From positions 64,001-128,000 of the forward strand of contig OZ219791.1 in assembly GCA_964291215.2 (NCBI GenBank): 64,000 bases of DNA. The letters are read 5' to 3'. The notes beneath the pieces are model-generated. The model did not search any database. It worked only from the letters and a program-made list of their open reading frames with translations, and had not been told where the DNA came from. The translations under genes were made by a program, and so were the position numbers. Shown piece after piece: positions 8,738 to 62,932 of this stretch. The DNA is from Alphaproteobacteria bacterium (GTDB lineage Bacteria > Pseudomonadota > Alphaproteobacteria > MPNO01 > UBA830). The first letter of the stretch is position 1. Each line of letters starts with the position of its first letter.

Positions 8738-11700
8738 GTAACTGCTCACCCCCCTGGTTCCGGCTTGATGTCGGGGTAGAGCAACGAACGGGTTTTCGTG
8801 GAGATTTGACACTGCATGCCGATTCGCTTAGTGGTGGTCATCGAGAACGACGGGGACCGCCAGTGGGCTACTTTGGATCGAAGGCGACGAGTGGGCTGTG
8901 CCAGCTGCTTCCGGGGCTCCGGCCCCCGCATGATCTGTATGTGAAAACGCATCTCGGAAGCGGCGCGCTGATGAAGCGCAAGGCCGGGTGATGGCGACGG
9001 GCGGCGCGCGAGGAGTTCGAAGCGGCCAAGACCGCGGCGCTGCCGGCAAGGTGGCGGAAGAGGCCGTCATCCGCGTCTTCGTCATCCTGCTCGACATCCT
9101 CATCGTCGTCCTTCTGGAGAAGACCACGCACGAGCCGGAACTCCGGTCTGCCGCCGTCACAGACGGACAAGAGCGTGCCGGGAGCAAGGGCCCGAAGCCG
9201 AACCGGCAGATGGGCGACAACCTGCGCAAGATCATCGTCGAGGAGACGGTCGCGGCCTGCGACGCCTGCGGCGCCGACGGCCCCGTCGATCGGGAGCGCC
9301 GCACGACATCGTGTTCGAGGTCGTCGAGCGCCGCGCCGAGATCAAGGAATGCCCGAAGTGCAAGGCCCGGGGCCGGTTCCCCGACAACATCCCGTGCAGT
9401 ACGGCATCCAGGCCCTCGTCATCAACCTGCTGGTCGCCCAAATGCTGTCCCTGCGCCGTCGCGCTCGTGCAGGCGATATCAAGCTCTCCGAGGCCTCGGC
9501 TATGCTTTCACGATGCGTCATGGGAGGAGGCCGCCGTGGCGCACCTCCTGCAACGCCCGATGTCGACGATTTCGGATCAACAGTAAGTGGCTTCATGTCG
9601 TGGGACCCTGACGTGCAAGTTCCCGCACCGCAAGCGCGGGCAAGAGATCGGCCCGTGCTACAAGGGCGTCCTGGGCCTCGTACATGGGCCAGTGTAGCCA
9701 CCAGCGGCAGCCACCTGCTGCGCGAACTGACCTTTGTCGTCGAGTCTACCGCGCGACTGATGAAGAGCCTGCTCCCTGCCACAAGATCAACAAGAGCGCA
9801 TCCAAGACCCTGAACGACGCCGGGCGCAAGCGCTACCGCACCATCAGGGCGCCAGGGAACTGCCCGACATCCCGACGAAAGGAAAACGTGGACGCAAGTC
9901 CGACGCGCACAACCTGCACGAACGTCTCGTGAAACACGAAAACCTGCGCTTCACAGACGACCATTGCGGTAGGGAACCGGGTTACCCCCCGCACAGAACC
10001 GGACGTGCGCTGTTCGCATCCGGCTCCTCCCCTGACGACAAGGCGCTGGTTTGGCCACGGATGCTGGCTCAGTGGGCAGCGGCGAGGGTGTCTATGTCCC
10101 CGGTGACGTCCTTTTGGGAGCGTCGCCGAAGGGCACGCAGCCGTTTGCATTGGTGTATGAACCCCTGCAGGGATTGACTGCTTCCCGGGACGGCGTAGTA
10201 GCAGCCGTTGATGACTCACCACTTGGCCGTTTCGTGCCGGTTGTCGTGCCATTGCATGCGCAAGGCCCCCTTGATCCGCCGCAGGGTGCCCGTTTGCGAG
10301 ACGGTTTGCGACCGACCCTGAACCTGCCTTTCCTCGTCTGTTCGCAGAAGTGCGTCATGCCGAGGAAGTCGAACGTCTTGCCCTGCTTCCGGCGGTTCGC
10401 TCTGGCAAACCGACCGAACTCGATGATTGTCCGGGTGCAGTTCAAGTGGGCCAGCCTCTCCCCAAGGTCCCGGAGAAAGCGCTGCGCATCGCCCAGATGC
10501 TGAAAGCCGCACACGAAGTCGTCCGCATAATGATCGTGTCGCCTCCAGCCATCCGCTTGCGCCAGTGGTTCTGGAACCAGTCGCACGTAGTGCAGGTAAA
10601 CGTTCGCGAGGCAGGGCGATACAATCGCCCCCTGCGGTGTTCCCTTGCCCGTATCCGACCAGTCGGTCCCTTCCATGACGCCGGCGTTTAGCCACTTGAT
10701 GATCAGACCCCCCGATCCGTTTCCCGAGCATCGCAATCAGGTGGTCGCGGTCGAGATTGTCGAAGAACCCGCGGGCGTCAACGATCCAGTTGACCTTCCG
10801 CCGTTCCACCGTGACGGCGTCGAGCGCGTGATGCGCCCCGGCCGGAAACCGTAACTAAACCCGAGGAACTCCGTTTCGTAGAGCGGCACCAGAATCACAC
10901 TGCCCGCTGAAGAATCTTGTCCGAGGCAAGCGGTCGTTGCCCTCCATCCTCCTTGGGTATGTAAACCCTGGAGGCGCCCGGTACGCACCCCTGTGCACAC
11001 GGGCGTGCAGGCAGTTCCACACCCTCCGCATACGCTTGCCACACAACGCCCCGCCGCCGCGTCCTTCCTCAAGGAATGGAACGCATCGTGCAGAGCGTCG
11101 ACCGTCACGTGGTGGAGTAAAGACGCTCTTCCGGGTTCCTCTTCGCTACCTGCGTTCAGCCGCCTGTGACCCCCGCTTCTGCGCGCGGCGCGGGCCAACC
11201 GCATTGCCCTTCCCTCCAGCAACTCCGCAGGCTCCGAAGAACCCTTGTTCGCCGCCTTCAACGGTACTATGGCCGGATCTGACTTCTCGTTCATCATCGG
11301 TTTATGGAATAGTTCCTTTCCTCTGCGGCCCCTCCACGACAGAGGGGCAAGACCTCCCAGGTCCCTGCTTCGGCCATGGTTCTCGGACCCCGCGGAGCCC
11401 CCCTCACCAACGCGGCTCGCGGGGTGTTGCCCACTTGGACGACCTCGGCACTCCGGTTTCAAAGCATCTCGTGGCTCAATAGCCCGGCCTGCCGCTCCCC
11501 AACGCTTCGCCTGACGCCTCACGACGCATGGTTCACGGAGAAAGTGGTGGTTAGCCTCTCTTCCTGCCGGGACTTGCACCCGGCAACATTCCACCAGTTA
11601 GCCTGGCGCACCCAACGTCAGCTTCACCAACAATGCCGGAGAACAGAAGATCAGGATGGCAAAGGTCAAGGTGTCCGGATGCTTCCGCTCCACGCAAAAG

Positions 11701-11851
11701 CATGGTGCCGGGGCTCAAGCTACCTCACCTCCATGGCCGCACTCGGCTACAATCATCACGTCGCAACTCAGATCGCCCTCGACGGAAAAGCCGCAGACAT
11801 CATCAACGAGCACTACGACCAATCAGAACCCAACTAGGGGTGAGTAGATAC
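8738..11851 (+). mobile_element. IS66-family element copy 1 (degenerate), carrying a group II intron
   Basis: IRs GTAACTGCTCACCCC / GTATCTACTCACCCC, 8-bp TSD AGTGGAGC (8730-8737, 11852-11859); fragments GSHLLRELTFVVE, FTNNAGEQKIRMAKVK. Confidence 0.92.
9963..11611 (-). mobile_element. ltrA: Group II intron with degenerate RT/maturase (copy 1)
   Basis: 5' GTGCGCCAGG, 3' CCCTACCGCAAT, DV-like stem; fragments GTPQGAIVSPCLANVYLHY, YADDFVCGF, FDFLG; precise insertion in IS66 without TSD. Confidence 0.92.
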
Positions 11852-13183: not shown

Positions 13184-14304
13184 GTGTCTTGTCATTCGTC
13201 AAATGTCGGATAAAGGCGTTTGAGTTTCACGCGGGCATCGTCGGTGGTGAATTGCCAATCCACCTTGGCCTGAATGCGGTCGCCTGCCAAGCGGCAACTT
13301 CCCGGCGTAACACCTCGATGCAGTCGATGCGGCGGTTCAGGCGGATCATGACGTTGAGTTCCACCACGTTCAGCCAACTGCCGTGCTTGGGGGTGTAGAC
13401 GAACTCGAAGCGGTCCCACAGGGCCTTGGCCTCGTCCGGCGGGTAGGCCTCGTAGAGGGCGCCGGGGAGTGTTGAGATTGTCCATCACCAGGGTGATGGT
13501 GGTGGCATCCTGGTAGCGCCCGGCGATGTCGGCTAGGAACTGCGCCCAATCGATCTTGCGCTCGGTTACCTTGGTCATGCGCTTGCCGGCCAGGGGTTCC
13601 GTGAAGACGTTGCAGGTACCGCAACGTCGATACTCGTAGTCGTTACGCGCTGGCCGTCCCGGCGCCATGGCGATCGATTGCCGTGTCTCGCCGGTCGGGG
13701 CGTTTCGTCCATGCAGACCACGGGGAAGGCGGCGGGACGGCGATAGACATCGAGCACCTTCGCTGCGGCGAAGTCGGCGTTCCCTTGAGGAGGAATCACC
13801 CACCCGCTGCCATGGCTTGAGGCAGTTTTTTTTAGAACACGCCGCACCGTCTCGTGTGACACGGTGTAACCAAGCTCGACAACGCGGTCGGCCAGCAGCC
13901 GCAACGACCATTGCGCGTAACCCTCAGGCGGTTCACCACAACTCAGGGCCACGCGCCTCGAAGACGCCGTCGGCTTTTCGCATATAGGTAGGACGGCGCC
14001 GGCCACCCAATGCCGCCTCCAGCCCCTCGAAACGCTTCTTTACTCGGTCTACTTTGCGCATGCTGATGCGCAGAATCTCAGCAATGACCTTCCCGGTCAT
14101 CTGGCATTCATTGAACGCGCTCTCGTCGCAGTTAAGCAGGATCAGGGCGTTGATTACCTTTTGCGACAGGTGCGAGCCCTTGATCTCCGAAAGTTCTGCC
14201 CGTTCGTCCAGGGTCACCACGTAGCGTTTCATACTCCGACCTCCATCCCGAATGGACGGACAGTCTAGCACCAAATGTACGACATATCATTGCTGACATA
14301 ACAC
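13184..14304 (-). mobile_element. IS630-family element (type a, degenerate)
   Basis: IRs GTGTCTTGTCA / GTGTTATGTCA, TA duplication in CTAG; fragments VVCMDETP, DYEYRRCGT, ITLVMDNLNT, WQFTTDDARVKLKRLYP. Confidence 0.88.
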
Positions 14305-15829
14305 TAGTTGGGTTCTGATTGGTCGTAGTGCTCGTTGATGATGTCTGCGGCTTTTCCGTCGAGGGCGATCTGGGTGGCGACGAGTGGGTTGTAGCCGAGT
14401 GCGGCCATGGAGGTGAGGTAGCTTGAGCCCCGGCACCATGCTTTTGCGTGGAGCGGAAGCATCTGGACACCTTGACCTTTGCCATCCTGATTTTCTGTTC
14501 TCCGGCATTGTTGGTGAAGCTGACGTCAGGGTCGTCTGTGAAGCGCAGGTTTTCGTGTTTCACGAGACGTTCGTGCAGGTTGTGCGCGTCGGACTTGCGT
14601 CCACGTTTTCCTTTCGGCGGGATATCGGGCAGTTCCCTAGCGCCCTGATGGTGCGGTAGCGCTTGCGCCCGGCGTCGTTCAGGGTCTTGGATGCGCTCTT
14701 GTTGACCTTGTGGCAGACCTCGCGGAGCAGGCTCTTCATCAGTCGCGCGGTAGCCTCGACGACAAAGGTCAGTTCGCGCAGCAGGTGGCTGCCGCACAGC
14801 TGGTGGCTACACTGGCCCATGTACGAGGCCCAGGACGCCCTTGTAGCACGGGCCGATCTCTTGCCTCCCGGCCGCGCTTGCGGTGCGGGAACTTGCACGT
14901 CAGGGTCCCACGACATGGAGCCACTTGCTGTTGATCCGAAATCGTCGACATCGGGCGTTGCAGGAGGTGCGCCACGGCGGCCTCCTCCCATGACGCATCG
15001 TGAAAGCATAGCCGAGGCCTCGGAGAGCTTGATGCCGGAGATCGCCTGCACGAACGCGACGGCGCAGGGACAGCATTTGGGCGACCAGCAGGGACGAGGG
15101 CCTGAATGCCGTACTGCACGGGATGTTGTCGGGGAACCGGCCCCGGGCCTTGCACTTCGGGCATTCCTTGATCTCGGCGCGGCGCTCGACGACCTCGAAC
15201 ACAATGTCGTGCGGCGCTCCCGATCGACGGGGCCGTCGATGTCGGCGCCGCAGGCGTCGCAGGCCGCGACCGTCTCCTCGACGATGGCAGGTTGTCGCCC
15301 ATCTGCCGGTTCGGCTTCGGGCCCTTGCTCCCGGCACGCTCTTGTCCGTCTGTGACGGCGGCAGACCGGAGTTCCGGCTCGTGCGTGGTCTTCTCCAGAA
15401 GGACGACGATGATGATGTCGAGCAGGATGACGAGGACGCGGATCACGGCCTCTTTCGGCACCTTGCCGGCAGCGCCGCGGTCCGGGTCTTGGCCGCTTCG
15501 AACTCCTCGCGCGCCGCCCGTCGCCATCACCCGGCCTCGACGGTCATGATCGTCGCGAGCATCGCTTGGCGCTCGCCCGGCGGCATCTTCCGGTACTCCG
15601 CCTTGCGCTTCATCAGCACGCCGCTTCCGAGATGCGTTTCCACATACAGATCATGCGGGGGCTGGAGCCCCGGAAGCAGCTGGCACAGCCCGCTCGTCGC
15701 CTTCGATCCAAAGTAGCCCACTGGCGGTCCCCGTCGTTCTCGATTACCACCACTAAACGAATCGGCCTGCAGTGTCAAATCTCCACGAAAACCCGTTCAT
15801 TACTCTACCCCGACATCAAGCCGGAACTA

Positions 15830-16663
15830 GGTTGTGGACTCAAATAATTGGTTTGCGATTCTGCGGAGCAAGAATCGGCTGGCAGCCAGTTGCACGGCGG
15901 AGAGGAAGTTCCTTGTCATAACGGGTGGCGACCCGTCGGAACTCCTTGATCTTGCCGAAGAACCGCTCGACCAGGTTGCGCATCCTGTAGATCTCGCGGT
16001 CAAGCGGCCGGGGCGATGTCCGGTTGGATTTTGACGGAATGACCGCGGTTGCTCCTGCCATCTCGATCAGATGGCGTCGGTGTCGTAGGCCTTGTCGCCG
16101 ACCACCGTCTCGCTCGAGGTCGGCGAGAAGCGCCTGCGCGCAGTCGGCCGCCTGGCCCGGGGTCAGGAACACGGTTTTCACCCTCTCGTTCTCGCCAAGA
16201 TGGACCTTCGTCGTTCGTCCGCCACGGCTCACTGCGAAGGCTCGTCGTCCCGGGACGCCCCGGCTTGTGAACGCGCACCGACGAGGAGTCCACCATGCGC
16301 AGGTGAACCGAGCGAGCCATCGTCGCTCCCGTCATCATCGCTCGTAAGCCTTTGAAGCTTCTCCATGCCCAGGTGCCGTTCTTGCTCCACCGGTTGAAGC
16401 GGTTGAAGCAGACGGACCGTACCGCTCCGGCAGATCGCGCCACGGCGTACCGGTGCGAAGCACGAAGAATATCCCGTTCATGACCCTCCGGTCATGCACC
16501 CGCTCCGGGCCCTGGTGCTTGTCGGGAAGCACCGAGCGGAGAACCTCCCATTCCGCGTCGCTCATGTCGTGTCGGTCGCCGCTCATCCTTCACTCTCCTT
16601 GTGGATCGCTTTTGACAAGACATGGCAAATCGTGCAAAAATGTCAACATTTGGGTACACACCC
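15830..16663 (-). mobile_element. IS5-family element (IS427/IS1031-like, degenerate)
   Basis: IRs GGTTGTGGACTCAAA / GGGTGTGTACCCAAA, CTAG at both ends; GIFFVLRTGTPWRDLPERYG, RNLVERFFGKIKEFRRVATRYDK. Confidence 0.88.
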
Positions 16664-29422: not shown

Positions 29423-30959
29423 GATACGCCCCGGAACGCTCCCTGTGAGTACCTGTACGGTCCCTGTATCGAAACGCTAGGAAACCTATCGCGGTAGGGA
29501 ACCGGGTTTCCCCGGTCCCCCCGCACAGATCCGGACTTGCGCTGTTCGCTCCTCCCCTGACGACAAGGCGCTGGTTTGGCCACGGATGCTGGCCTTAGGC
29601 CAGTGAGCTTCGATGAGGGTGTCCATGTCCCCGGTGCGATCCTTTTGGGAACGCCGCCGAAGGGCACGCAGCCGTTTGCATTGGTATATGAACCCCTGCA
29701 GGCTGCTTCCCGGAACGGCGTAGTAGCAGCCTTTGATCACTCGCCACTTGGCCGTCTTGTGCCGATTGTCGTGCCACCGCTTGCGCAACGCCTCCTTGAT
29801 CCGCCGCAAGGTGCCCGTTTCCGGGATGGTTTGCGGCCGACCCTGAACTTGCCCTTCCTCGTCTGCTCGCAATAGTGCCTCATACCGAGGAAGTCGAACG
29901 TCTTGCCCCCGCTTCCGGCGGTTCGCTCCCGCAAACCGACCGAACTCGATGATTGTCCGGGTGCAGTTCAAGTGAGCCAACCTCTCCCCGAGGTCCCAGC
30001 GCTTCGCATCGCCCTGATCCTGAAAGCCGCACACAAAATCATCCGCATACCGCACGATGATCGTGTCAGTCATCCGTTTGCACCAGTGGTTCTGAAACCA
30101 GTCACGTAGTGCAGGTAAACGTTCGCCAGGCAGGGGCTGCGCCCTGTGGCGAACCAACACCGGTGTCGCTCCATGACGCCAGCGTCACTTGATGATCAGA
30201 CCCCCCGATCCGTCTCTCGAGCATCGCGACCAGGTGGTCGCGGTTGTCGAAGGGGCGTCAACGATCCAGTTGACCTTCCGCCGTTCCACCGTGACTGCAT
30301 CGAGCGCGTTGTGCGTCCCGGCCGGAAACCGTAACTGAACCCGAGGAACTCCGTCTCGCGGTACCAGAATCGTGTCCGTCACTGCCCGCTGAAGAATCTT
30401 GTCCGAGGCAAGCGGTCGTTGCCCTCCTTGGGTATGTATACCCGACGGAGGCGCCCGCCCCTGTGCACACGGCAGGTCGACCAGTTCCACACCTTCCGCA
30501 TACGCGTGCCACGTAACTCCGTCCACGCCCGCTGCCGCGTCCTTTCTCAAGGAGTGAAACGCCGCGTGCAGGACATCACGTGGTGGAGCAACGTCACAAG
30601 ACGCTCTTCCGGATTCCTCTTCGCAACTTGTCGTATGCGCCGCCTGTGACCCCCGCTTCTGCGCGCGGCGCGGGTCAACCGCATTGCCCTTCCCTCCAGC
30701 AACTCCGCAGGCTCCGGAGAGCCCTTGTTCGCCGCCTTCAGCGGTACTATGGCCGAATCTGACTTCTCGTTCATCATCGGTTTACGGAACAGTTCCTTTC
30801 CTCTGCGGCCCCTCCACGACAGAGGGGCAAGACCTCCCAGGTCCCTGCTTCGGCCATGGTTCTCGGACCCCGCGGAGCCCCCCTCACCAACGCGGCTCGT
30901 TGCCTTCGGCCACGACCTCGGCACTCCGGTTTCAAAGCACCTCGTGGCTCAATAGCCTG

Positions 30960-33377
30960 GTCGGGTAGGCTGCTGGCGCGCGCATCCTTAAGCGAAGGCT
31001 TTATCCGTCACCGCTCTTTCGATTGCGGGCGGGTTCGCAGAATCGCCATAGACCACGTTTCCAGCAGCCCCCCTAAAATTCCGTACGTGTAACTGCTCAC
31101 CCCCTGGCTCCGGCTTGATGTCGGGGTAGAGTAACGAACGGGTTTTCGTGGAGATTTGACACTGCATGCCGATTCGCTTAGTGGTGGTCATCGAGAACGA
31201 CGGGGACCGCCAGTGGGCTACTTTGGATCGAAGGCGACGAGCGGGCTGTGCCAGCTGCTTCCGGGGCTCCAGCCTCCGCATGATCTGTATGTGGAAACGC
31301 ATCTCGGAGGCGGCGCGCCGATGAAGCGCAAGGCCGGGTGATGGCGACGGTCAACGCGGCGCGCGAGGAGTTCGAAGCGGCCAAGACCCGGATCGCGGCG
31401 CTGCGTGCGGCCGGCAAGGTGGCGGAAGAGGCCGTCATCCGCGTCCTCGTCATCCTGCTCGACATCATCATCGTCGTCCTTCTGGAGAAGACTACGCGCA
31501 AAACGAGCCGGAACTCCGGTCTGCCGCCGTCACAGACGGACAAGGACAAGAGCGCGAGGCGCGCCGGAAGCAACGGCAAGGGCCCGAAGCCGAACCGGCA
31601 GATGGGCGACAACCTGCCATCGTCGAGGAAACGGTCGCGGCCTGCGACGCCTGCGGCGCCGACATCGACGGCCCCGTCGATCGGGAGCGCCGCGTCCTCT
31701 ACGACATCGTGTTCGAGGTCGTCGAGCGCCGCGCCGAGATCAAGGAATGTCCGAAGTGCAAGGCCCGGACCAAGGGCCGGTTCCCCGACAACATCCCGTG
31801 CAGTACGGCATCGGCATTCAGGCCCTTGTCATCAACCTGCTGGTCGCCCAGATGCTGTCCCTGCGCCGTGCCGTCGCGTTCGTGCAGGCGATCTCCGGCA
31901 TCAAGCTCTCCGAGGCCTCGGCTATGCTTTCACGATGCGTCATGGGAGGAGGCCGCCGTGGCGCACCTCCTGCAACGCCCGATGTCGATGATTTCGGATC
32001 AACAGCAAGTGGCTCCATGTCGTCACCGACGGAACCCTGACGTGCAAGTTCCCGCACCGCAAGCGCGGCCGAGAGGCAAGAGATCGGCATCATCCCGTGC
32101 TACAAGGGCGTCCTAGGCCTCGTACATGGGCTATGACCAGTGTAGCCACCAGCTGTGCGGCAGCCACCTGCTGCGCGAACTGACCTTTGTCGTCGAGGCT
32201 ACCGCTGGGCGCGACTGATGAAGAGCCTGCTCCCTGCCACAAGGTCAACAAGAGCGCATCCAAAACCCTGAACGACGCCGGGCCGTGCGCAAGCGCTACC
32301 GCACCATCAGGGCGCCAGGGAACTGCCCGATATCCCGCCGCCGCCGAAAGGAAAACGTGGACGCAAGTCCGACGCGCACAACCTGCACGAACGTCTCGTG
32401 AAACACGAAAAGTCAGTCCTGCGCTTCACAGACGACCCCAACGTCAGCTTCACCAACAATGCCGGAGAACAGAAGATCAGGATGGCAAAGGTCAAGGTGT
32501 CCGGATGCTTCCGCTCCACGCAAAAGCATGGTGCCGGAGCTCAAGCTACCTCACCTCCATGGCCGCACTCGGCTACAACCCACTCGTCGCCACCCAGATC
32601 GCCCTCGACGGAAAAGCCGCAGACATCATCAACGAGCACTACGACCAATCAGAACCCAACAAGGGGTGAGTAGATACCCGTACGTCCGGTTTTCCCGGTT
32701 CAAGCATCAGGCACCCACTTGGAGTTCGGTGCGGAGCCTTCCCACGCCATGGTCAAGGCTGACCCAGCCATACCCACGGCATCTCCGAGCGTTTGCTCCG
32801 TCCTTCGGCCTTGCAGTCTGTCGGTCTGAGTACCGACTTGACCTGCCGCAGAGGCCACCTGAGCCCTGAGGTCCTCGCTCGGGACGGGTTGTGTTGTCCC
32901 GCCCCTTAGGCGACCTCATCCGCCAGTCAGGAGGACTCCGCGTCCTTTCCCGTTTCCCGGTTATAGACGCGGTCCTTGACGGGTCGCTTCATCCTGTCTG
33001 TCCTCCTCACCTTCCGGTCTTTCACTGCTGATCTGTCCCGGATTGCCGCCGTCTGTACCCCGGGGAACCCGATGCGTGTTCCTCAGTTCTTCCGCATCGA
33101 CACTGGCCATCGGGTAGCAACCTTGGCGTTCACCGTCTATCCCACAAATCAGCTTCGTGTGGGTGGGGAATTTCGGGGCTTCCCGTTCGCTTTCGCCCTC
33201 CGGTTTGCTCGCCGCCCTGGCTGACCGAACCGGCTGGACACTGCGTTCCAGCCAGCCCACGACGGCTTCCTACGTCCCAGCTCGCTGGTCCAGGGTCGCC
33301 CCTGAACCAATGCTACGGCGCCAAACTGAGAATTGCGGGACTTTCACCCGCAAGATCAGCAGCTAGACTCGCTGCAC
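30960..33377 (-). ncRNA. ORF-less group II intron-like ribozyme (about 820 nt without the nested IS66)
   Basis: 5' GTGCAG, GGTGAAAGTCC motif, DV-like GGAAAACCGGACGTACGGAAT, 3' CTACCCGAC; no TSD; host intron rejoins exactly; no RT ORF. Confidence 0.8.
31089..32677 (+). mobile_element. IS66-family element copy 3 (least degraded, intron-free)
   Basis: Same IRs; 8-bp TSD CCGTACGT (31081-31088, 32678-32685). Confidence 0.93.
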
Positions 33378-38380: not shown

Positions 38381-39031
38381 TTGACCGTGCCGCCGCCCGC
38401 CGCGCCGAAGCTCTACCACATCGTCCATGTGGACCGGTTGTCGTCGATTGTTGCCGACGGCGGCCTCCGGTGCGATGCGGCACTTCAGGCGCAGCCGCGA
38501 CCGGGGACGACCATCGGCATGAACGCGATCAAGCAGCGACGTTTGACCAATCCACTGGAATGCCAGCCCGGGCTCAATGTCGGCGACTGCGTGCCGTTCT
38601 ATTTCTGTCCGCGTTCCGTCATGCTCTTTGTGATCCACAGGGGAAATCATGGCGAACTTGCGTATCGCGGTGGCCAGGATCCCATCGTGCATCTGGAGGC
38701 CGACCTGCGCGAAACGGTCGACTGGGCCGAGCGGAACGGGCGGCGGTGGGCTTTCACCCTGTCCAATGCAGGCTCCCGGTACTTCCAGGACCGGTGCAAC
38801 CTGGCGCGACTCGACGAGATCGACTGGGATGCCGTCGAGGCGCGGGATTGGCGCGCCCCCAAGATTAAGGAGAGCAAGCAGGCGGAGTTCCTTGTCGAGC
38901 GGTCTTTCTCCTGGACGCTGGTTCAGCGCGTCGGCGCGCGCACGTTCGCGGCCCGCGACCGGGCGGCGGAGGCCCTGCGCGCCGCCGCTCATCAGCCTGC
39001 TGTCACGGTTCGGCAGGCGTGGTATTATTGA
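38381..39031 (+). CDS. darT: DarT DNA ADP-ribosyltransferase toxin (DUF4433)
   Basis: LYHIVHVDRLSSI, VPFYFCPRSVML, KQAEFLV, WYY end. Confidence 0.88.
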   Translation: MTVPPPAAPKLYHIVHVDRLSSIVADGGLRCDAALQAQPRPGTTIGMNAIKQRRLTNPLECQPGLNVGDCVPFYFCPRSVMLFVIHRGNHGELAYRGGQDPIVHLEADLRETVDWAERNGRRWAFTLSNAGSRYFQDRCNLARLDEIDWDAVEARDWRAPKIKESKQAEFLVERSFSWTLVQRVGARTFAARDRAAEALRAAAHQPAVTVRQAWYY

Positions 39032-39049
39032 TGCTGCAAGGGGACAGCG

Positions 39050-40102
39050 ATGATCCGCTTCAAGACGGGTGATATCCTCGCCGAAGATGCCGATGCGCTG
39101 GTCAACACCGTCAACTGCGTCGGGGTGATGGGACGCGGGATCGCGCTCCAGTTCAAGAGGGCGTTTCCCGAGAATTTCCGCGCCTATGCCGAGGCCTGCA
39201 AGCGGGAGGAAGTCCACCCCGGCCGCATGTTCGTCTTCGAGACGGACGCGCTCACCAATCCGCGTTTCATCGTCAACTTCCCGACCAAGCGCCATTGGCG
39301 CGCCAACAGCCGGATCGAGGATATCGATGCCGGGCTAGACGATCTTGCACGGGTGATCCGCGAGCGCGGAATCCGTTCGATCGCGGTGCCGCCGCTCGGC
39401 AGCGGTCTCGGCGGTCTGGATTGGCGCGAGGTGCGGCCGCGCATCGAGGCGGCCCTGCGCGGCCTCGACAATCTGGATACCGTCGTCTTCGAGCCAGACG
39501 GCACACCGGCGCTGATGGCGCACAGCCGCGAAGTTCCGACGATGACGCCGGGGCGGGCCGCGCTGGTCGGGCTGATGAACCGCTATCTGAACGGCCTCCT
39601 CGATCCCTCCATCACCCTGCTGGAAGTCCACAAACTGTTGTACTTCATGCAGGTCGCGGGCGAGCCGCTGAGGCTCCGCTACACAAAGGCCCTCTACGGG
39701 CCTTATGCCGAGAATCTGCGCCATGTCCTCAACGCGCTGGAGGGACACTTCATAACCGACTACGGCGACGGTGGCGACCGGCCCGACAAGCTGCTGGAAA
39801 TCGTCCCCGGCGCGGTCGAGGACGCCACCGAGGTCCTGGACCGTTCCCCCACGACGCGGGAGCGTTTCGAGAGGGTCGCCGATCTAGTCGACGGGTTCGA
39901 ATCGGCTTTCGGCCTCGAGCTGCTCTCGACGGTGCATTGGGTTCTCGAACACGAGGCGCCAGCGTCGTCGGAAGAGGTTATCGCGACAACCTACGCCTGG
40001 AACGAGCGCAAGAAGAGGTTCTTTCCCCGGCAGATCGAGTTGGCGGTTGGCGTGCTGACCGAAAAGGGCTGGACCGCCGGCCTCCATGCCGCCCAGCCAT
40101 GA
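39050..40102 (+). CDS. darG: DarG macrodomain antitoxin
   Basis: ALVNTVNCVGVMGRGIALQFK, NFPTKRHW, PPLGSGLGGL, YGPYA, GLELLSTVHW. Confidence 0.92.
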   Translation: MIRFKTGDILAEDADALVNTVNCVGVMGRGIALQFKRAFPENFRAYAEACKREEVHPGRMFVFETDALTNPRFIVNFPTKRHWRANSRIEDIDAGLDDLARVIRERGIRSIAVPPLGSGLGGLDWREVRPRIEAALRGLDNLDTVVFEPDGTPALMAHSREVPTMTPGRAALVGLMNRYLNGLLDPSITLLEVHKLLYFMQVAGEPLRLRYTKALYGPYAENLRHVLNALEGHFITDYGDGGDRPDKLLEIVPGAVEDATEVLDRSPTTRERFERVADLVDGFESAFGLELLSTVHWVLEHEAPASSEEVIATTYAWNERKKRFFPRQIELAVGVLTEKGWTAGLHAAQP

Positions 40103-44444: not shown

Positions 44445-45651
44445 CCCCCGTTCCATAGTGAAGTGCAACACATGATGGGCTGTGGCCATGTGTTTTTAGA
44501 CGCATGATGTTGCGGAGCGGTAGCGGCGAGAGTTGCTGTACAAGATGAAGGGAGCTTGTTCATGTCCAAAGGCTACCGTCACCTACGAAGAGCGATGCCA
44601 GATTGAGGCAGAAAAGCGGTCTTTCACAAGGTGCGATTGCTCGGCAGCTAGGCCGATCAACAATTTTCCGGGAGATCAAGCGCAACACCGGGGGACGGGG
44701 TCACCGTCACAAGCAGGCGCAAAGGATGGCAGAAACGCGCCGCAGGACAGACTCGTCTGTTTCCTGGCGGTTGACGCCTCGGGTTGAAGCTCAGAAAAAG
44801 CTGCGGGAGGGCCCCGAGCAGCGGCCGTTTTCGACTGGAGGGCCGTGGGTCGGCAACGGATCCATGATCGCCGAAGATCGGAGAGCTGGGGGCGTCTTGT
44901 GGAAGAAGCTTCGGCGGCGCGGCAAGAAGCCGAACTGGAAGGGCGGATGCCATTCCGGCCGGGTGGACATTTCCGAGCGCCCTGCGGAGGCAAAGGAACG
45001 GATCGGCGACTGGGAACCATCATCGGCAAAGCTCACAGTGGAGCTGTCGTGTCGCTGGTTGATCGTGCCACGAAATACACCTTGCCGGGTGGACAGAAAG
45101 ACACGGTCGGTTCGGTCATGATCCGCCTGCTCGGCTCTGGTGCGCTATTGGTCCACACAATCACAACGGCAAGGAGTTCGCAGACCACAGGCGTGTCGCA
45201 CTTGACGCAGATTTCTTCTTCGCCTTTCCATTCCTGGGAGCGCGGCTTGAATGAGCACACCAACGGCCTGGTGCGGGAGTACTTCCCGAAGGGCACGGAC
45301 TTTCGCGCGATATGCAACGAAGATGTTCAGAAGGTACAGGATCGGATCAACACTCGGAAAGTCCCGGGATCGCTGACGGAGGTAATCTTGAAGTGAAACC
45401 GCGCTGACCATCTGCGCCATGTTCCGAAGCCGTAACGTGCAGCAGGGTCCATGCCGCGCGACGGCGGAATAGTGGCTTGAAGTCGACAAAGGCGTTGCAT
45501 AAGCTCGGTGTTGAAGGAACTGAAGCTGTTCCCAGGCGGAATCGAGAGGGGCAGAGGGGGAAATTTGCGCAACATCCGGCCCTCATCTCCGTTCGGGCTA
45601 CGCCCTCACTGCGATGCGGGCCGGATGTTGCACTTCAGACTGGAAGTGGGG
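44445..45651 (+). mobile_element. IS30-family element copy 1 (degenerate, no TSD)
   Basis: 26-bp IRs CCCCCGTTCCATAGTGAAGTGCAACA / CCCCACTTCCAGTCTGAAGTGCAACA; SWERGLNEHTNGLVREYFPKGTDF. Confidence 0.9.
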
Positions 45652-45983
45652 TCCATGTAGAACACCGCCAGAACGGGGCTTAGCAGATGCATGCAAAGCG
45701 GCATGTCCGACTTTTCCGGCTTGATCCGGTGACGCATGTCGAAAACCGCGATCTGTCCCGGTTTGACGCTACAGCCGCAGCCCTCGTTCCGGATCACCTC
45801 GGCCACGATCTCGTAGTCGTCCAGCCAGGTCACGCCCAGCCGCCGACGCCCCGACAAGAGGTTCTTCACCTCGGGGGAAAGCCGGTTGAAATCCTCGTCA
45901 CTCGGATACGGCGCCCGCAATTCCTCCAATCCGTCACTATCAAGATAGTCGTGTGGGTAATGACGCGTGGCCTTGTCAGACAT
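45652..45983 (-). pseudogene. Cys-containing hypothetical protein truncated by IS30
   Basis: MSDKATRHYP...CGCSVKPG...PLCMHLL; RBS GAGG; runs into IS30 end. Confidence 0.5.
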
Positions 45984-49124: not shown

Positions 49125-50311
49125 CCCCCGTTCCATAGTGAAGTGTAACACATGATGGGCTGTGGCCATGTGTTTTTAGACGCATGATGTTGCGGAGCGG
49201 TAGCGGCGAGAGTTGCTGTACAAGATGAAGGGAGCTTGTTCATGTCCAAAGGCTACCGTCACCTACGAAGAGCGATGCCAGATTGAGGCGTTACAGAAAA
49301 GCGGTCTTTCACAAGGTGCGATTGCTCGGCAGCTGGGCCGATCAACAATTTTCCGGGAGATCAAGCGCAACACCGGGGGACGGGGTTACCGTCACAAGCA
49401 GGCGCAAAGAATGGCAGAAACGCGCCGCAGGGCAGCCTCGTCTGTTTCCTGGCGGTTGACGCCTCGGGCTGAAGCTCAGAAAAAGCTGCGGGAGGGCCCC
49501 GAGCAGCGGCCGTTTTCGACTGGAAGGCCGTGAACGGATCCATGATCGCATTCATGAAGATCGGAGAGCCGGGGGCGTCTTGTGGAAGAAGCTTCGGCGG
49601 CGCGGCAAGAAGCCGAACTGGAAGGGCGGATGCCATTCTGGCCGGGTGGACATTTCCGAGCGCCCTGCGGAGGCAAAGGAACGGGTCGGCGACTGGGAGC
49701 CATCATCGGCAAAGCTCACAGTGGAGCTGTCGTGTCGCTCGTGCCACGAAATACACCTTGCTGGGTGGACAGAAAGACACGGTCGGTATGATCCGCCTGC
49801 TCGGCTCTGGTGCGCTATTGGTCCACACAATCACAACGGCAAGGAGTTCGCAGACCACAGGCGTGTCGCACTTGACGCAGATTTCTTCTTCGCCTTTCCA
49901 TTCTTGGGAGCGCGGCTTGAATGAGCACACCAACGGCCTGGTGCGGGAGTACTTCCCGAAGGGCACGGACTTTCGCGCGACATGCAACGAAGATGTTCAG
50001 AAGGTGCGGCTCAACACTCGGAAAGTCCCGGGATCGCCGACGGAGGTAATCTTGAAGTGAAACCGCCCTGACCATCTGCGTTCCAAAGCCGCAACGTGCA
50101 GCAGGGTCCATGCCGCGCGACGGCGGAATAGTGGCTTGAAGCCGACAAAGGCGTTGCATAAGCTCGATGTTGAAGGAACTGAAGCTGTTCCCAGGCGGAA
50201 TCGAGAGGGGCAGAGGGGAAAAATTTGTGCAACACCCGGCCCTCATCTCCGTTCGGGCTACGCCCTCACTGCGATGAGGGCCGGGTGTTGCATTTCAGAC
50301 TGGAAGTGGGG
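49125..50311 (+). mobile_element. IS30-family element copy 2 (degenerate)
   Basis: Same IRs as copy 1; TGA duplicated on both sides. Confidence 0.9.
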
Positions 50312-50360
50312 TGATATAAAACCTCAGACTATAGGTTCTGTATTATGAGGTTTTGTATCA
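50312..50360. promoter_or_regulatory. AbiEi-type operator: 23-bp inverted repeats with 3-bp spacer
   Basis: TGATATAAAACCTCAGACTATAG-GTT-CTGTATTATGAGGTTTTGTATCA immediately before abiEi ATG. Confidence 0.75.
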
Positions 50361-53151: not shown

Positions 53152-53310
53152 CTTCAAGCAGGTTCCGCCCTTGAATATCCAGCTCTCGCGCAGCGCATCG
53201 TGACTATGGATGCCCCAAAGGAGCCAGCCGAGCACATAGTCCTTTTCGACGACATGCGGGTTGAGCCCGAGCGCGCTCGCAGCGTCGATGATTTCGCGTT
53301 TGTCGATCAC
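53152..53310 (-). pseudogene. Second AbiEii-like toxin, 5' remnant
   Basis: VVEKDYVLGWLL...WIFKGGTCLK then IS end. Confidence 0.82.
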
Positions 53311-54343: not shown

Positions 54344-55780
54344 ATGGAAAAAATCGGGGGCTCAATCCGGCTCAGCGCCGACGATCTCGTCGGCTACCTG
54401 AACTGCCATCACCTTTCCGGGCTGGACCGCGCTGTCGCCGAAGGCAAGCGCGCGAAGCCGAAGGTCTGGGACCCGCTGCTCGAGATTCTCTGGGAACGGG
54501 GATCGATTCACGAGCAGAACTATGTCGATCATCTGAAAGGCAGCGGGCTCGGCGTTATCAGGATCGACGGCGTCGATGTCACGGCTGCCGCTGTCGCCGA
54601 GACCCTTGCCGCGATGAAGGACGGCACCGAGGTGATCGTCCAGGATGCGCTCGCGCATGACGGCTGGGCCGGCCGCGCCGATATTCTGCGCCGCATCGAA
54701 ACGCCCAGCGCCCTGGGTGCATGGTCTTACGAAGCGATCGATACCAAGCTCGCCCGCGAGACCAAGGCGGGCACGGTGCTCCAGCTCTGCCTGTATTCCG
54801 ACCTGCTGCACGAGGCACAGGGCGCGCCGCCGGAATGGATGTACGTGATTGCGCCGTGGTCGGATTTCGAGCCGCAATGCTACCGCTTCGCTGACTGTGG
54901 CGCTTACTTCCGCCAGGTCAAAAACGGGTTGTTGCGCAGCCTGGCCGGACAGAGCGCGCCAGAAACCTATCCCGATCCGGTCGTGCACTGCGATATCTGC
55001 CGGTGGCGCGAGGATTGCGACCAGCGCCGGCGCGATGACGATCATCTGTGCCTCGTCGCCGACATCTCCAAACTCCAGATAAATGAACTGAAGGCACACG
55101 GGATCGCCACAACGCAGGATCTTGCGCAGATGGAACTGCCGCTCGCCTGGAAGCCGGAGCGCGGCTCGGCCGAAGCGATAACCCGCATTCGCGAACAGGC
55201 GCGGATTCAGTGGGAGGCCCGGCAGGCCGGCGAGCGCAAATGCGAGGTTCTGCCGCCCGAACACGGCTTCGGTCTGACGCGCCTGCCGGATCCGTCAAAA
55301 GGCGACATATTTCTCGACCTCGAAGGCGACCCGTTCGTCGGCGAGCACGGCCTCAAATATCTGTTCGGCTATCTCTACGAAGGCGAAGACGGACAATGCG
55401 TTTACGAGGGCGACTGGGCCTTTACCCGCGCTGAGGAAAAACAGGCCTTCGAACGGTTCGTCGATTTCGTGATGGCGCGGTGGGAGGCCTGTCCCGACCT
55501 TCACATCTACCATTACGTGCCCTACGAACCGGCCGCGCTCAAGCGCCTGATGGGCCGGTATGCCAGCCGGGAAGAAGAGATCGACCGGATGCTGCGGGCA
55601 GGGCTGTTCGTCGATCTTTATCAGGTCGTGCGGCACGCGGTGCGCACGAGCGTGGAAAGCTATTCGATCAAGCAGCTCGAACCGTTTTTCGGCTTCGAAC
55701 GCGATACCGCCCTCCCCGACACCAATGCGGCGCTCGCCAACCTGCAGGCCAATCTCGAACTCGATGACGCGACCTCGATC
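54344..55780 (+). pseudogene. TM0106-family RecB-like nuclease, truncated (downstream domains lost)
   Basis: LSADDL..YLNC.H, GRADIL, DTKLAR, QLCLYS, FLDLEGDP, YSIKQLE; sequence switches to IS630 at CTCGATC. Confidence 0.82.
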
Positions 55781-56116
55781 ACTTCCGCCACCTTCTCGTC
55801 CGCGATGCTCCGCGGGCGTCCCGGCCGGGGCTCAGCCCCTCGATGCGGTCCTTGACAAAGCGCTTGCGCCACTTGCCGACGGTGTGCACGCCGATCTCTG
55901 CGGCCACCGCCTTGTTGCCAAGCCCGTCCGCGCAACGCAGGATTATGCGGCTCCGACAGCGAGCGCGCCACACGGTGGCGGCGAACCTGCGCCTCCAGAT
56001 ACGACCGATTACTCAAGACCAGCACCGCCAAGGGCCGTCCCGTGGCATCGCCATGACCTCCGTGTTCACACTCCGACCGCCATCATACAATTATACTTAC
56101 TTCAGTTCCAGATGAT
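55774..56116 (-). mobile_element. IS630 type b 5' remnant
   Basis: Reverse complement matches 47708-about 48045. Confidence 0.85.
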
Positions 56117-56134
56117 TAGCATGGGATCGTCGTG
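56117..56134 (-). mobile_element. Isolated ISAs1 terminal inverted repeat
   Basis: TAGCATGGGATCGTCGTG matches TAGCGTGGGATCGCCGTG at 53134-53151. Confidence 0.65.
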
Positions 56135-58547: not shown

Positions 58548-59814
58548 CGTTCAGGTTTCCGTGCGTTGAGGTTAATCGAAGAAAAGAGTGCTTTGATGTA
58601 ACTGCTCACCCCCTGGTTTCGGCTTGATGTCGGGGTAGAGCAACGAACGGGTTTTCGTGGAGATTTGACACTGCAGGCCGATTCGTTTAGTGGTGGTAAT
58701 CGAGAACGACGGAGACCGCCAGTGGGCTACTTTGGATCGAAGGCGACGAGCGGGCTGTGCCAGCTGCTTCCGGGGCTCCAGCCCCCGCATGATCTGTATG
58801 TGGAAACGCATCTCGGAGGCGGCGCGCTGATGAAGCGCAAGGCCGGGTGATGGCGACGGGCGGCGCGCGAGGAGTTCGAAGCGGCCAAGGCGCTGCCGGC
58901 AAGGTGGCGGAAGAGGCCGTGATCCGCGTCCTCGTCATCCTGCTCGACATCATCATCGTCGTCCTTCTGGAGAAGACCACGCACGAGCCGGAACTCCGGT
59001 CTGCCGCCGTCACAGACGGACAAGAGCGTGCCGGGAGCAACGGCCCGAAGCCGAACCGGCAGATGGGCGACAACCTGCCATCGTCGAGGAGACGGTCGCG
59101 GCCTGCGACGCCTGCGGCGCCGACGGCCCCGTCGATCGGGAGCGCCGCACGACATCGTGTTCGAGGTCGTCGAGCGCCGAGATCAAGGAATGCCCGAAGT
59201 GCAAGGCCCGGGGCCGGTTCCCCGACAACATCCCGTGCAGTACGGCATCGGCATCCAGGCCCTCGTTATCAACCTGCTGGTCGCCCAGATGCTGTCCCTG
59301 CGCCGTGCCGTCGCGCTCGTGCAGGCGATATCAAGCTCTCCGAGGCCTCGGCTATGCTTTCACGATGCGTCATGGGAGGAGGCCGCCGTGGCGCACCTCC
59401 TGCAACGCCCGATGTCGACGATTTCGGATCAACAGCAAGTGGCTTCATGTCGTGGGACCCTGACGTGCAAGTTCCCGCACCGCAAGCGCGGGCAAGAGAT
59501 CGGCCCGTGCTACAAGGGCGTCCTGGGCCTCGTACATGGGCCAGTGTAGCCACCAGCGGCAGCCACCTGCTGCGCAAACTGACCTTTGTCGTCGAGGCTA
59601 CCGCGCGACTGATGAAGAGCCTGCTCCCTGCCACAAGGTCAACAAGAGCGCATCCAAAACCCTGAACGACGCCGGGCGCAAGCGCTACCGCACCATCAGG
59701 GCGCCAGGGAACTGCCCGACATCCCGCCGCCGCCGAAAGGAAAACGCATAGCAAACGCGCACAACCTGCACGAACGTCTCGTGAAACACGAAAACCTGCG
59801 CTTCATAGACAACC

Positions 59815-61437
59815 ATCGCGGTAGGGAACCGGGTTACCCCCCGCACAGAACCGGACGTGCGCTGTTCGCTCCTCCCCTGACGACAAGGCGCTGGTTTGGC
59901 CACGGGTGGCGGATGCTGGCTCAGTGGGCAGCGGCGAGGGTGTCTATGTCCCCGGTGAAGTCCTTTTGGGAGCGTCGCCGAAGGGCACGCAGCTGTTTGC
60001 ATTGGTGTATGAACTTCTGCAGGCTGCTTCCTGGAACGGCGTAGTAGCAGCCGTTGATAACTCACCACTTGGCCGTTTCGTGCCGGTTATCGTGCCACCG
60101 CCTGCGCAAGGCCTCCTTGATCCGCCGCAGGGTGCCCGTTTGCGACCGACCCTGAACCTGCCTTTCCTCGTCTGTTCGCAGAAGTGCGTCATGCCGAGGA
60201 AGTCGAACGTCTTGTCCACGCTTCCGGTGGTTCGCTCTGGCAAACCGACCGAACTCGATGATTTTCCGGGTGCAGTTCAAGTGGGCCAGTCTCTCCCCAA
60301 GGTCTCGGAGAAAGCGCCGCGCGTCGCTCAGATGCTGAAAGCCGCACACGAAGTCGTCCGCATAGCGGACAATGATCGTGTCGCCTCCAGCCATCCGCTT
60401 GCGCCAATGGTTCTGGAACCAGTCGCACGTAGTGCAGGTAGACGTTCGCAAGGCATGGCGCCGCCCCTTGCGGTGTTCCCTTGCCAGTCGGTCCCTTCCA
60501 TGACGCCGGCGTCACTTGATGATCAGACCCCCCGATCCGTTTCCCGAGCATCGCGACTAGATGGTCGCGGTCGAGATTGTCGAAGAACCCACGGATGTCG
60601 GCGTCAACGATCCAGTTGACCTTCCGCCGTTCCACCGTGACGGCATCGAGCGCATGATGCGTCCCGCGCCCCGGCCGGAAGCCGTAACTAAACCCGAGGA
60701 ACTCCGTCTCGCGGCACCAGAATCACACCGCCCGCTGAAGAATCTTGTCCGAGGCAAGCGGTCGTTGCCCTCCATCCTCCTTGGGTATGTAAACCCGCCG
60801 AGATGGAGGCGCCCGGTACGCACCCCTGTGCACACGGGCGTGCAGCAGTTCCACACCCTCCGCGTACGCTTGCCACACAACGCCCCGCCGCCGCGTCCTT
60901 CCTCAAGGAGTGGAACGCATCGTGCAGAACATCGACCGTCACGTGGTGGAGTAAAGACGCTCTTCCGGGTTCCTCTTCGCTACCTGCGTTCAGCCGCCTG
61001 TGACCCCCGCTTCTGCGCGCGGCGCGGGCCAACCGCATTGCCCTTGGCCTTCCCTCCAACAGCTCCGCAGGCTCCGAAGAACCCTTGTTCGCCGCCTTCA
61101 GCGGTACTATGGCCGAATCTGACTTCTCGTTCATCATCGGTTTACGGATTAGTTCCTTTCCTCTGCGGCCCCTCCACGACAGAGGGGCAAGACCTCCCAG
61201 GTCCCTGCTTCGGCGCGTGCCATGGTTCTCGGACCCCGCGGAGCCCCCCTCACCAACGCGGCTCGTTGCCTTCGGCCACGACCTCGGCACTCCGGTTTCA
61301 AAGCATCTCGTGGCTCAATAGCCTGGCCTGCCGCTCCCCAACGCTTCGCCTCACGACGCATGGTTCACGGAGAAAGTGGTGGTTAGCCTCTCTCGGGACT
61401 TGCACCCGGCCACATTCCACCAGTTTGCCTGGCGCAC
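59815..61437 (-). mobile_element. ltrA: Group II intron with degenerate RT (copy A)
   Basis: 5' GTGCGCCAGG, 3' CCCTACCGCGAT; IVDADIRGFFD, IIVRYADD; same IS66 site as copy 1. Confidence 0.92.
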
Positions 61438-62932
61438 ATCGCGGTAGGGAACCGGGTTACCCCGGTCCCCCCCGCACAGAACCGGACGTGCGCTGTTCGC
61501 TCCTCCCCTGACGACAAGGCGCTGGTTTGGCCACGGATGCTGGCTCAGTGGGCAGCGGTGAGGGTGCCTACGTCCCCGGTGAAGTCCTTTTGGGAGCGTC
61601 GCCGAAGGGCACGCAGCTGTTTGCATTGGTGTATGAACTTCTGCAGGCTGCTTCCTGGAACGGCGTAGTAGCAGCCGTTGATAACTCACCACTTGGCCGT
61701 TTCGTGCCGGTTATCGTGCCACCGCCTGCGCAAGGCCTCCTTGATCCGCCGCAGGGTGCCCGTTTGCGAGATGGTTTGCGACCGACCCTGAACCTGCCTT
61801 TCCTCGTCTGTTCGCAGAAGTGCGCCATGCCGAGGAAGTCGAACGTCTCCGGTTTGCCCTGCTTCCGGCGGTTTGCTCTGGCAAACCGACCGAACTCGAT
61901 GATTTTCCGGGTGCAGTTCAAGTGGGCCAGTCTCTCCCCAAGGTCTCGGAGAAAGCGCCGCGCGTCGCCCAGATGCTGAAAGCCGCACACGAAGTCATCC
62001 GCATAATGATCGTGTCGCCTCCAGCCATCCGCTTGCGCCAGTGGTTCTGGAACCAGTCGCACGTAGTGCAGGTAGACGTTCGCAAGGCATGGCGCCGCCC
62101 CTTGCGGTGTTCCCTTGCCAGTCGGTCCCTTCCATGACGCCGGCGTCACTTGATGATCAGACCCCCCGATCCGTTTCCCGAGCATCGCGACCAGATGGTC
62201 GCGGTCGAGATTGTCGAAGGGGCGTCAACGATCCAGTTGACCTTCCGCCGTTCCACCGTGACGGCATCGAGCGCATGATGCGCCCCGGCCGGAAGCCGTA
62301 ACTAAACCCGAGGAACTCCGTCTCGCGGCACCAGAATCACACCGCCCGCTGAAGAATCTTGTCCGAGGCAAGCGGTCGTTGCCCTCCATCCTCCTTGGGT
62401 ATGTAAACCCCGGAGGCGCCCGCCCCTGTGCACACGGGCGTGCAGGCAGTTCCACACCCTCCGCATACGCTTGCCACACAACGCCCCGCCGCCGCGTCCT
62501 TCCTCAAGGAATGGAACGCATCGTGCAGAGCGTCGACCGTCACGTGGTGGAGTAAAGACGCTCTTCCGGGTTCCTCTTCGCTACCTGCGTTCAGCCGCCT
62601 GTGACCCCCGCTTCTGCGCGCGGCGCGGGCCAACCGCATTGCCCTTGGCCTTCCCTCCAACAGCTCCGCAGGCTCCGAAGAACCCTTGTTCGCCGCCTTC
62701 AACGGTACTATGGCCGAATCTGACTTCTCGTTCATCATCGGTTTACGGATTAGTTCCTTTCCTCTGCGGCCCCTCCACGACAGAGGGGCAATTGGAAGAC
62801 CTCCCAGGTCCCTGCTTCGGCCATGGTTCTCGGACCCCGCGGAGCCCCCGTTCGCCTCACCAACGCGGCTCGTTGCCTTCGGCCACGACCTCGGCACTCC
62901 GGTTTCAAAGCATCTCGTGGCTCAATAGCCTG

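Follow-up and report, generated by a model that had tools for sequence, protein, structure and literature searches.

Short deletions of fixed size, probably spread by biased conversion between repeats, erode abundant mobile elements in an alphaproteobacterial genome

In fungal repeat-induced point mutation (RIP), repeats acquire C-to-T changes and unique DNA is spared. Cordaux reportedly described in 2009 gene conversion among dead insertion sequence (IS) copies in Wolbachia, where conversion, to judge by the title, is said to maintain the elements. Here we analyse a stretch of 64,000 nucleotides (nt) from an Alphaproteobacteria bacterium (the window, G000:C2:64001-128000 of the source genome G000), whose IS66 insertion sequences and group II introns share identical deletions in patterns that fit no tree. 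Deletion-biased nonallelic gene conversion, the closest described process, is known from Drosophila and primates (Assis & Kondrashov 2012, PMC3280953). MutS binds loops of up to 4 nt (PMC8235422), loops of ≥5 nt are poorly recognised by it (PMC2920528), and E. coli has been reported to repair large loops (PMC2504288). With a probability of roughly 65%, we interpret the pattern as the product of a recently arisen, lineage-specific process that makes 5–7-nt deletions and of deletion-biased short-patch conversion between repeats, which together erode every abundant transposon and intron family examined in G000 (6.15 Mb in two contigs, 64% GC, 99% complete). The observations are deletion polarity in IS66 and the intron, a size window, loss of linkage beyond ~15–30 nt, dependence on copy number and locus, and an excess in single-copy DNA.

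The IS66 family of G000 comprises 230 left ends and 116 uninterrupted copies; exclusion of two divergent copies leaves 114 for most analyses. The elements have a PF03050 transposase, an 8-nt target duplication and GTAA-type termini, which we take to be a hallmark of IS66. The union of all copies is 1826 nt long with an open frame of 496 codons, and because this union reopens the frame, the length differences between copies are losses. Aligned to the union reference, a copy carries on average 35.0 deletions, 1.0 insertion and 24.5 substitutions. Deletions of 5–7 nt make up 3048 of the 4064 calls, with 51 of 4 nt and 52 of 8 nt. All 114 copies have at least 7 frameshifting deletions each and a mean loss of 296 nt. 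The same minimum holds for each of the 48 full intron copies (mean loss 320 nt), whose union opens a 428-codon reverse transcriptase (RT) frame with the YADD motif. The intron is identified by its ribozyme domains and by the RT with YADD, and the deletions reach the domain V/VI end. Target duplications of 8–10 nt accompany 83 of the 116 IS66 copies, so most copies are separate insertions. Clean private IS66 deletions of 3/4/5/6/7/8/9 nt number 13/4/34/60/40/19/8, and deletions at ≥60% frequency number 2/0/64/145/92/8/1 at the same lengths. Mean frequency is 0.12–0.16 for deletions of 1–4 nt and 0.38–0.41 for those of 5–7 nt, with longer ones intermediate.

In the window the two elements are distributed as follows:
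8738-9962 and 11611-11851 (span 8738..11851), plus strand: IS66 copy 1, eroded, 41 deletions, split by intron 1 and lying inside an EamA gene.
8730-8737 and 11852-11859: 8-nt target duplication of IS66 copy 1.
9963..11610, minus strand: group II intron copy 1, eroded, 40 deletions, RT frame broken (Rfam RF02005, RF00029).
14304..15831, minus strand: IS66 copy 2, eroded, 43 deletions, retaining the block 15534-15599 and GCGAGGT.
29488..30960, minus strand: group II intron 2, eroded, more diverged (98 substitutions).
31089..32677, plus strand: IS66 copy 3, 26 deletions, the least eroded IS66 of the window.
58598..59814, plus strand: left part of IS66 copy 4, eroded; its 40 deletion calls count the absent right end.
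59815..61437, minus strand: group II intron A, eroded (Rfam match).
61438..62933, minus strand: group II intron B, eroded, in tandem with intron A (Rfam match).

An earlier note on this stretch had proposed that deletions are shared between these copies in overlapping sets that descent cannot produce, and this proves to be so: among the four IS66 copies all four triplets occur ({1,3,4}, {1,2,4}, {2,3,4} and {1,2,3}), which is incompatible with any tree. In the union-reference alignment GCGAGGT is indeed absent from copies 1, 3 and 4 and present in copy 2. The block at 15534-15599 is retained by copy 2 only, as had been claimed, but the loss spans 72 nt in union coordinates instead of 66 nt, and within this stretch copy 2 carries private losses of 8 and 4 nt. 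The loss described as ATCAT does affect copies 1, 2 and 4, but is really a 6-nt CATCAT deletion; TCAAC is likewise missing from these three, but not through an identical deletion: copy 2 lacks just these 5 nt, and copies 1 and 4 lost them as part of a deletion of 50 nt. Among the introns, a 7-nt deletion is common to copies 1 and B and another to copies 2 and B, where TCGAAGGGGCGTC occurs in precisely those two. The 6-nt deletions in {1,2,A} were also recovered, the one at GKPET being matched by pattern only. Across the genome, the four-gamete check fails for 905 of 1067 pairs of 5–7-nt IS66 deletions, and 0 of 67 deletions map in one step onto the tree of single-nucleotide polymorphisms (SNPs), with 15.2 steps compared to 16.6 after shuffling. 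The narrow size window, the genome-wide extent, the occurrence in single-copy DNA and the recurrence in a congener go beyond what had been noted. The intron occupies a single IS66 site in ~41 copies genome-wide and is also found in tandem behind itself.

Conversion over short patches is supported by linkage, which decays to near-shuffled values past ~15–30 nt for SNP–SNP, deletion–deletion and SNP–deletion pairs alike. In IS66, 273 of the 483 deletions of 5–7 nt exceed 50% frequency, and 1611 of the 2664 SNPs are singletons. Rare and shared SNPs have the same substitution spectrum, with 17–18% transversions in both classes below 20%; since the spectrum of the shared SNPs matches that of the private ones, transversions included, they have been copied and not re-mutated. 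Two copies with a rare SNP in common also share another in 38 of 167 cases when the two sites lie within 10 nt, in 6 of 88 at 11–20 nt, in 0 of 64 at 21–30 nt and in a few per cent at greater distances. Private SNPs are depleted 3–15 nt from a carried deletion (observed/expected, O/E, 0.83–0.84) compared to retained sites (1.13–1.57), with values of ~1 farther off; the raw counts are 618/152,554 where the deletion is carried and 233/41,498 where the segment is retained (p=3e-5). In a Moran-type simulation, 4–8 neutral conversions per site fit the IS66 SNP spectrum, and an equal conversion rate with a bias of 0.5–1 fits the deletion spectrum. The paralogs thus combine identical indels in non-tree patterns with dependence on local homology and overwriting of the flanks, as gene conversion would leave them, and the frequency spectra and simulation indicate indirectly that deletion is favoured over insertion. 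Short-tract, deletion-biased conversion had been one of the explanations offered beforehand, and it is the one that linkage decay, frequency spectra, flank SNP depletion, copy-number scaling and simulation support.

The erosion extends across the genome, in which repeats with at least three copies occupy ~1.95 Mb (32%). By Pfam, the large families include IS66, Mutator/IS256, IS630-like, DruA-fused DDE, ISAzo13 and Tn5-like transposases and integrases. Two abundant families (L133 and L134; G000:C2:356239-358203 and 460505-462787) encode an N-terminal DruA (PF14236) with a DDE_Tnp_1-associated transposase. Among 29 further families, most of those with at least 40 hits carry 10–20 deletions of 5–7 nt per kb. 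Low loads are found in a young family (1.2 SNP/kb; 0.4 per kb) and in two six-copy host gene families (0.3–0.6), the latter being under selection. The number of 5–7-nt gaps per SNP is 0.034 with one other copy, 0.06 with 2–4, 0.135 with 5–8 and 0.19 with 9–16 others, as measured in pairwise tiles at 0.5–6% divergence (~1406 of 3657 tiles, nearly all of them low-copy). Deletion load is correlated among adjacent copies from unrelated families over distances of up to 50 kb; more diverged copies carry a lower load. A search for a ~30-nt periodicity in the spacing of deletions found no regularity (coefficient of variation 0.6–1.1). At G000:C2 ~2.4–2.6 Mb, copies of several families are unusually deletion-poor (mean z –1.1, 20 copies); this region is possibly recently imported or less accessible DNA.

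We compared G000 with a sister species (G001; recA 95%, 93% complete), a distant congener (G002; recA 82%) and two single-contig congeners (G003 and G004). In single-copy DNA, 42 gaps of 5–7 nt lie on the G000 side and 1 on the G001 side (665 kb aligned, from 1.08 Mb of G001), and 21 of the 42 are in-frame 6-mers in genes. Gaps of 1–4 nt number 98 and 66, respectively. In gene content, 244 missing and 34 broken genes were listed for G001. G002 shows the same class of deletion, with clean gaps of 4/5/6/7/8 nt numbering 2/268/341/33/3 in 400 kb chosen around IS66 hits, and its gaps are common to old IS66 copies in non-nested sets. Deletion junctions in G002 have no excess of microhomology and are near the null (209 of 262 with 0–1 nt), and those in G000 have a modest one (≥2 nt in 41–46% vs 20% in the null). 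AT occurs in 60% of the deleted pieces of G002 compared to 11% of flanks, as a one-sided AT(C) signature at the 5' start of the deleted piece; its counterpart in G000, TC at offset 0–1, is weaker. Repeat pairs at 1–8% divergence contain 0 gaps of 5–7 nt in 14.5 kb of G003 and 1 in 15.0 kb of G004, which is suggestive of trait-negative genomes, with low copy numbers and elements that may be under selection. The samples G043 and G049 hold too little aged repeat for comparison. In G002 (L150-L157), eight identical intact IS66 copies stand alongside older eroded relatives, which suggests a fresh IS66 burst following an eroded wave.

Reads from three samples (X1–X3), used as read-derived contigs, contain the same indels, whose depths add up to hundreds or thousands where the flanks have depths of 4–90. 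X1 is possibly the source sample of the assembly and hence not independent of it; its flank contigs show 0 differences from the assembly. X3 is a different strain, with 12 differences over a ~2 kb flank and a direct jump from 8729 to 11852 with 8 shared letters, that is, an empty site at the position of IS66 copy 1. The EamA transporter gene (8539-8737, 11852-12575) is accordingly broken by copy 1 in X1 and X2 and free of the insertion in X3. A nearly intact copy has the hot 5-, 6- and 7-nt deletions in X2 and X3, with two of them among the X1 rows listed. As far as contigs can show, the pattern is not an assembly artefact. That collapsed repeats gave chimeric copies or false gaps during assembly or polishing is very improbable, even though larger families carry a higher load, as expected of mis-mapping, none of the contigs listed spans a whole copy, all breaking inside repeats, and 28 of 116 IS66 copies have no detectable target duplication. 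Against it stand the identical indels in three samples, the clean X1 flanks, the 83 copies with target duplications in a genome of just two contigs, the species-specific size window and motif of G002, the near absence of such gaps from the single-contig genomes G003 and G004, and the excess in single-copy DNA.

We propose that a new deletion would arise when a template loop of 5–7 nt beside T(C) on one strand is skipped or excised, loops of ≤4 nt being repaired by MutS and hence nearly absent. It would spread when a strand from another copy pairs over ~15 nt on either side of the site; mismatches and 1–3-nt loops would be resolved without bias and loops of ≥5 nt removed, so that the shorter allele wins. 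As N copies would offer N targets for each new deletion, large families would gain deletions faster than SNPs, and every copy of such a family would end up frameshifted. Occasional copying of whole elements would yield a few near-identical sisters.

Several results weigh against this proposal. Loops of 5–8 nt are still repaired by bacterial mismatch repair, with falling efficiency (PMC2504288), and the sharp upper size limit in G002 is explained more readily by an enzymatic cut than by a tail of slippage products filtered by MutS. Flanking SNPs are seldom co-transferred with rare deletions (within 10 nt, 4 of 51). At the ends of IS66 (first 240 and last 125 nt) there are 0 private 5–7-nt deletions where 6.4 are expected (p=0.002); SNPs are shared at these ends, and conversion leaves the lack of deletions there unexplained. 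An edge test on private breakpoints gave O/E of 0.59–0.87 within 50 nt, a result confounded by BLAST end trimming. Load does not follow private-SNP age (rho 0.04, IS66). Near-identical clusters hold 20 of 53 introns and 18 of 59 members of another family, compared to 2 of 114 for IS66, and given these eroded sisters short patches alone do not account for the pattern. In the families besides IS66 and the intron, the reference took in even single 5–7-nt extra segments, a choice that presupposes deletion polarity and may swell the >80% frequency class. The single-copy gaps are probably G000 losses, a polarity assigned from the comparison of two genomes. Conversion itself is deduced from its products. 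The near-identical eroded intron sisters occur in different host copies.

Independent recurrence at fixed sites, through a sequence- or guide-directed nuclease and precise rejoining, would also give non-tree patterns, and the earlier note had raised it as one possibility. The sites are non-random (TC at offset 0–1 in G000, 5'-AT(C) in G002), distinct deletions within 2 nt of each other are slightly in excess (43 vs 29), and strain X3 has the same deletions. We nevertheless consider it unlikely. The motif is weak and distinct deletions barely cluster; SNPs, transversions included, are shared and shuffled likewise; and load scales with copy number, being 10–30-fold lower per copy in small families of comparable SNP divergence. 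Nor was a guide found. The G000 CRISPR arrays (C1:574247-581193 and C2:2068487-2069548) hold 95 spacers of 35–38 nt and 16 of 30 nt, and these 111 spacers give only hits of 14–19 nt, the chance level, to 30 element references, with no self-targeting spacer. A Piwi-domain gene (Argonaute) was found in 0 of 25 genomes, and Ku and an ATP-dependent ligase each in 0 of 5 genus genomes, which leaves Ku/LigD end joining unsupported. Scars of transposase stagger are likewise rejected, as no family has a matching 5–7-nt target duplication among 168 nested insertions. Alternatively, intact helper transposases may have multiplied eroded copies in trans, so that the high deletion frequencies would reflect descent, with unbiased short-patch conversion only shuffling the deletions. 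Copy 1 is absent from X3, yet its 41 deletions exist elsewhere in that strain, and the deletion-free IS66 ends, the GTAACT termini common to the young intact IS66 family and the near-identical sisters at separate loci all agree with such a history. It has a small chance of being correct: relative to private SNPs, private 5–7-nt deletions amount to a few per cent (62 vs 1611). A master lineage that had gathered 26 of them would therefore be expected to bear hundreds of SNPs, and the copies differ by ~2%. The near-identity of only 2 of 114 IS66 copies, together with a load that follows genomic neighbourhood across families, also disagrees with it.

A third source of donors, likewise suggested in the earlier note, would be short complementary DNAs (cDNAs) made from element transcripts by the group II intron RT. 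G000 has ~60 intron copies and G002 has RT remnants, with none in G003 and G004 at E<=1e-6; the IS66 deletions lie mainly within the reading frame, and the patch length suits an oligonucleotide donor. We hold this route to be improbable. The inspected RT copies are all frameshifted, including each of the 48 full introns, and RT presence does not track the trait across the compared genomes: G001 has open RT frames of 441 and 483 codons and no such excess of single-copy deletions, with 1 gap. There is no leading/lagging-strand effect (p=0.26–0.59), SNPs are shared no less strongly in the left end, ahead of the transposase frame, than inside that frame, and the last 125 nt of IS66, which are mostly coding, are free of deletions.

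The machinery behind a conversion-driven erosion was sought among repair genes. Matches to MutS, MutL, RecA and ExoVII with open frames are found in G000, and loss of any of the four is rejected as the cause. NucS was not found in G000, and mismatch-centred cutting by EndoMS/NucS is further rejected by the frequency of SNPs in the deleted segments (63 of 153 vs 68.3 expected). RecT and Prim-Pol were looked for and not found, and a search for AEP-TOTE/IEE-like proteins gave a single 35-residue match, in G000 only. IstB of IS21 is present in trait-negative genomes and was not found in G002. Hairpin extrusion is disfavoured by a small folding difference (–2.76 vs –2.49 kcal/mol), a dyad target, suggested when strands were pooled, by the mutual exclusion of its halves in G002, and ligation across lagging-strand primer gaps by the absence of asymmetry (19 vs 17 among 61 private deletions, a test of low power). 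A TM0106-family RecB-like nuclease is found in G000 and G002 and was not found in G001, G003 or G004. The G002 protein (L326:4013-7372) is a fusion of 1119 residues, with nuclease, RNase H-like and UPF1/Dna2-type helicase parts, and its gene lies ~3 kb from polA; the helicase half was not found in G000. As a candidate factor this nuclease-helicase is a weak lead, because there are five genomes, about a dozen families were tried and G001 is only 93% complete. A horizontally spread factor, possibly of this family, might excise loops of 5–7 nt from DNA and thereby both create the deletions and resolve heteroduplexes toward them; this is a doubtful proposition, which, if true, would amount to a RIP-like, guide-free genome defence that recognises mobile DNA only by its number of copies and disables entire families of transposons and introns.

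Further features of the window are:
38381..40102, plus strand: intact DarT-DarG pair inside a type I restriction-modification operon.
44445..45652, plus strand: IS30-like copy, eroded, similar deletions (HTH_38 match below cut-off).
49125..50312, plus strand: second IS30-like copy, eroded.
54344..55855, plus strand: TM0106-family RecB-like nuclease gene, truncated by a repeat fragment (55774-56118).

The name IS30-like is our presumption for the two copies. In the restriction-modification operon (34959-43778), DarT-DarG sits between hsdS and hsdR, and hsdS has an internal 517-nt duplication of 99% identity (36994-37510 vs 37630-38146). DarT is known for ADP-ribosylation of thymidine in single-stranded DNA, with the DarT2 motifs TNTC/TCT/TTT (PMC7003065). 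The pair in the window is a candidate lesion source, and no DarT turned up in the loci sampled from G001–G004, which cover part of each genome; bypass of DarT2 lesions is disfavoured, as TNTC (0.16 vs 0.16 in flanks) and TT (0.31 vs 0.31) are not enriched, with the limit that the motif of the window DarT may differ. Two AbiEi genes and a 162-residue AbiEii lie at 50361-51459 and 53307-54038, the AbiEii fitting the first half of the model only. The IS66 left end (window 8863-8988, plus strand) preserves 42 codons of a passenger gene. Intact versions of 230 residues (L140:1671-2363, minus strand; L002:1463-2173, plus strand) occur in G004 and in a young IS66 family with 13 copies in G000, with a weak match to D12 adenine methyltransferase (E 0.04, below cut-off). 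The closest relatives of one window enzyme come mostly from marine Alphaproteobacteria; the bacterium is presumably a symbiont.

Erosion of this kind would mean that a transposon burst extinguishes itself, since more copies bring faster frameshifting of all, without guide RNA or selection on single copies. Deletional bias in bacteria and early genome reduction in symbionts could be traced to such a mechanism, one that is open to measurement, and the trait-positive G000 and G002 beside the apparently trait-negative G001, G003 and G004 constitute a natural experiment. The fixed size window and the one-sided motif point to an undescribed DNA-processing activity.

A literature search of open papers found no bacterial report of a fixed 5–7-nt deletion class driven through repeat families. 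As in fungal RIP, the damage to mobile DNA scales with how often it is repeated; unlike in RIP, the lesions are deletions that are spread by copying and occur at a low rate in unique DNA as well, and the C>T share is equal in all frequency classes. The likeness to deletion-biased conversion in eukaryotes (PMC3280953) is closer, in that paralogs pass identical length differences to one another, the deleted form prevails and neutral paralogs shorten in concert. That account, in its accessible part, concerns eukaryotic pairs with a ~3.4-fold bias and reports no size window, whereas here a bacterium has families of up to ~230 copies, a 5–7-nt window, arms of ~15 nt, deletions that outnumber SNPs and a dedicated source of new ones. 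Wolbachia is likewise an IS-rich bacterium in which non-functional IS copies exchange sequence and degrade; in G000 conversion probably drives the erosion, and no size-specific deletions are noted for Wolbachia in the portion of PMC3205602 at hand. Symbiont pseudogenes (PMC6054270) share the deletion bias in neutral DNA, partly with microhomology, but have power-law lengths, an excess of 3n and 3–10 deletions per pseudogene, unlike the deletions seen here, of which 5 and 7 nt are abundant, 3–4 nt rare and many common to copies. With oligonucleotide recombination and escape from mismatch repair (PMC2920528, PMC8235422) the system shares short homology and the distinction between 1–4-nt indels, which are repair substrates, and loops of ≥5 nt, which escape; it differs in a presumed natural donor in place of laboratory donors, in the lack of a strand effect in place of a lagging-strand bias, and in that RecT was not found. 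Loop-directed large loop repair (PMC2504288), in which the looped strand is removed regardless of nicks, matches the bias that we infer, but is described in that source as a yeast mode, with proteins unidentified and no link to repeat erosion. Taken together, the system appears to work like deletion-biased nonallelic gene conversion combined with the size threshold of mismatch-repair escape and the outcome of loop-directed repair.

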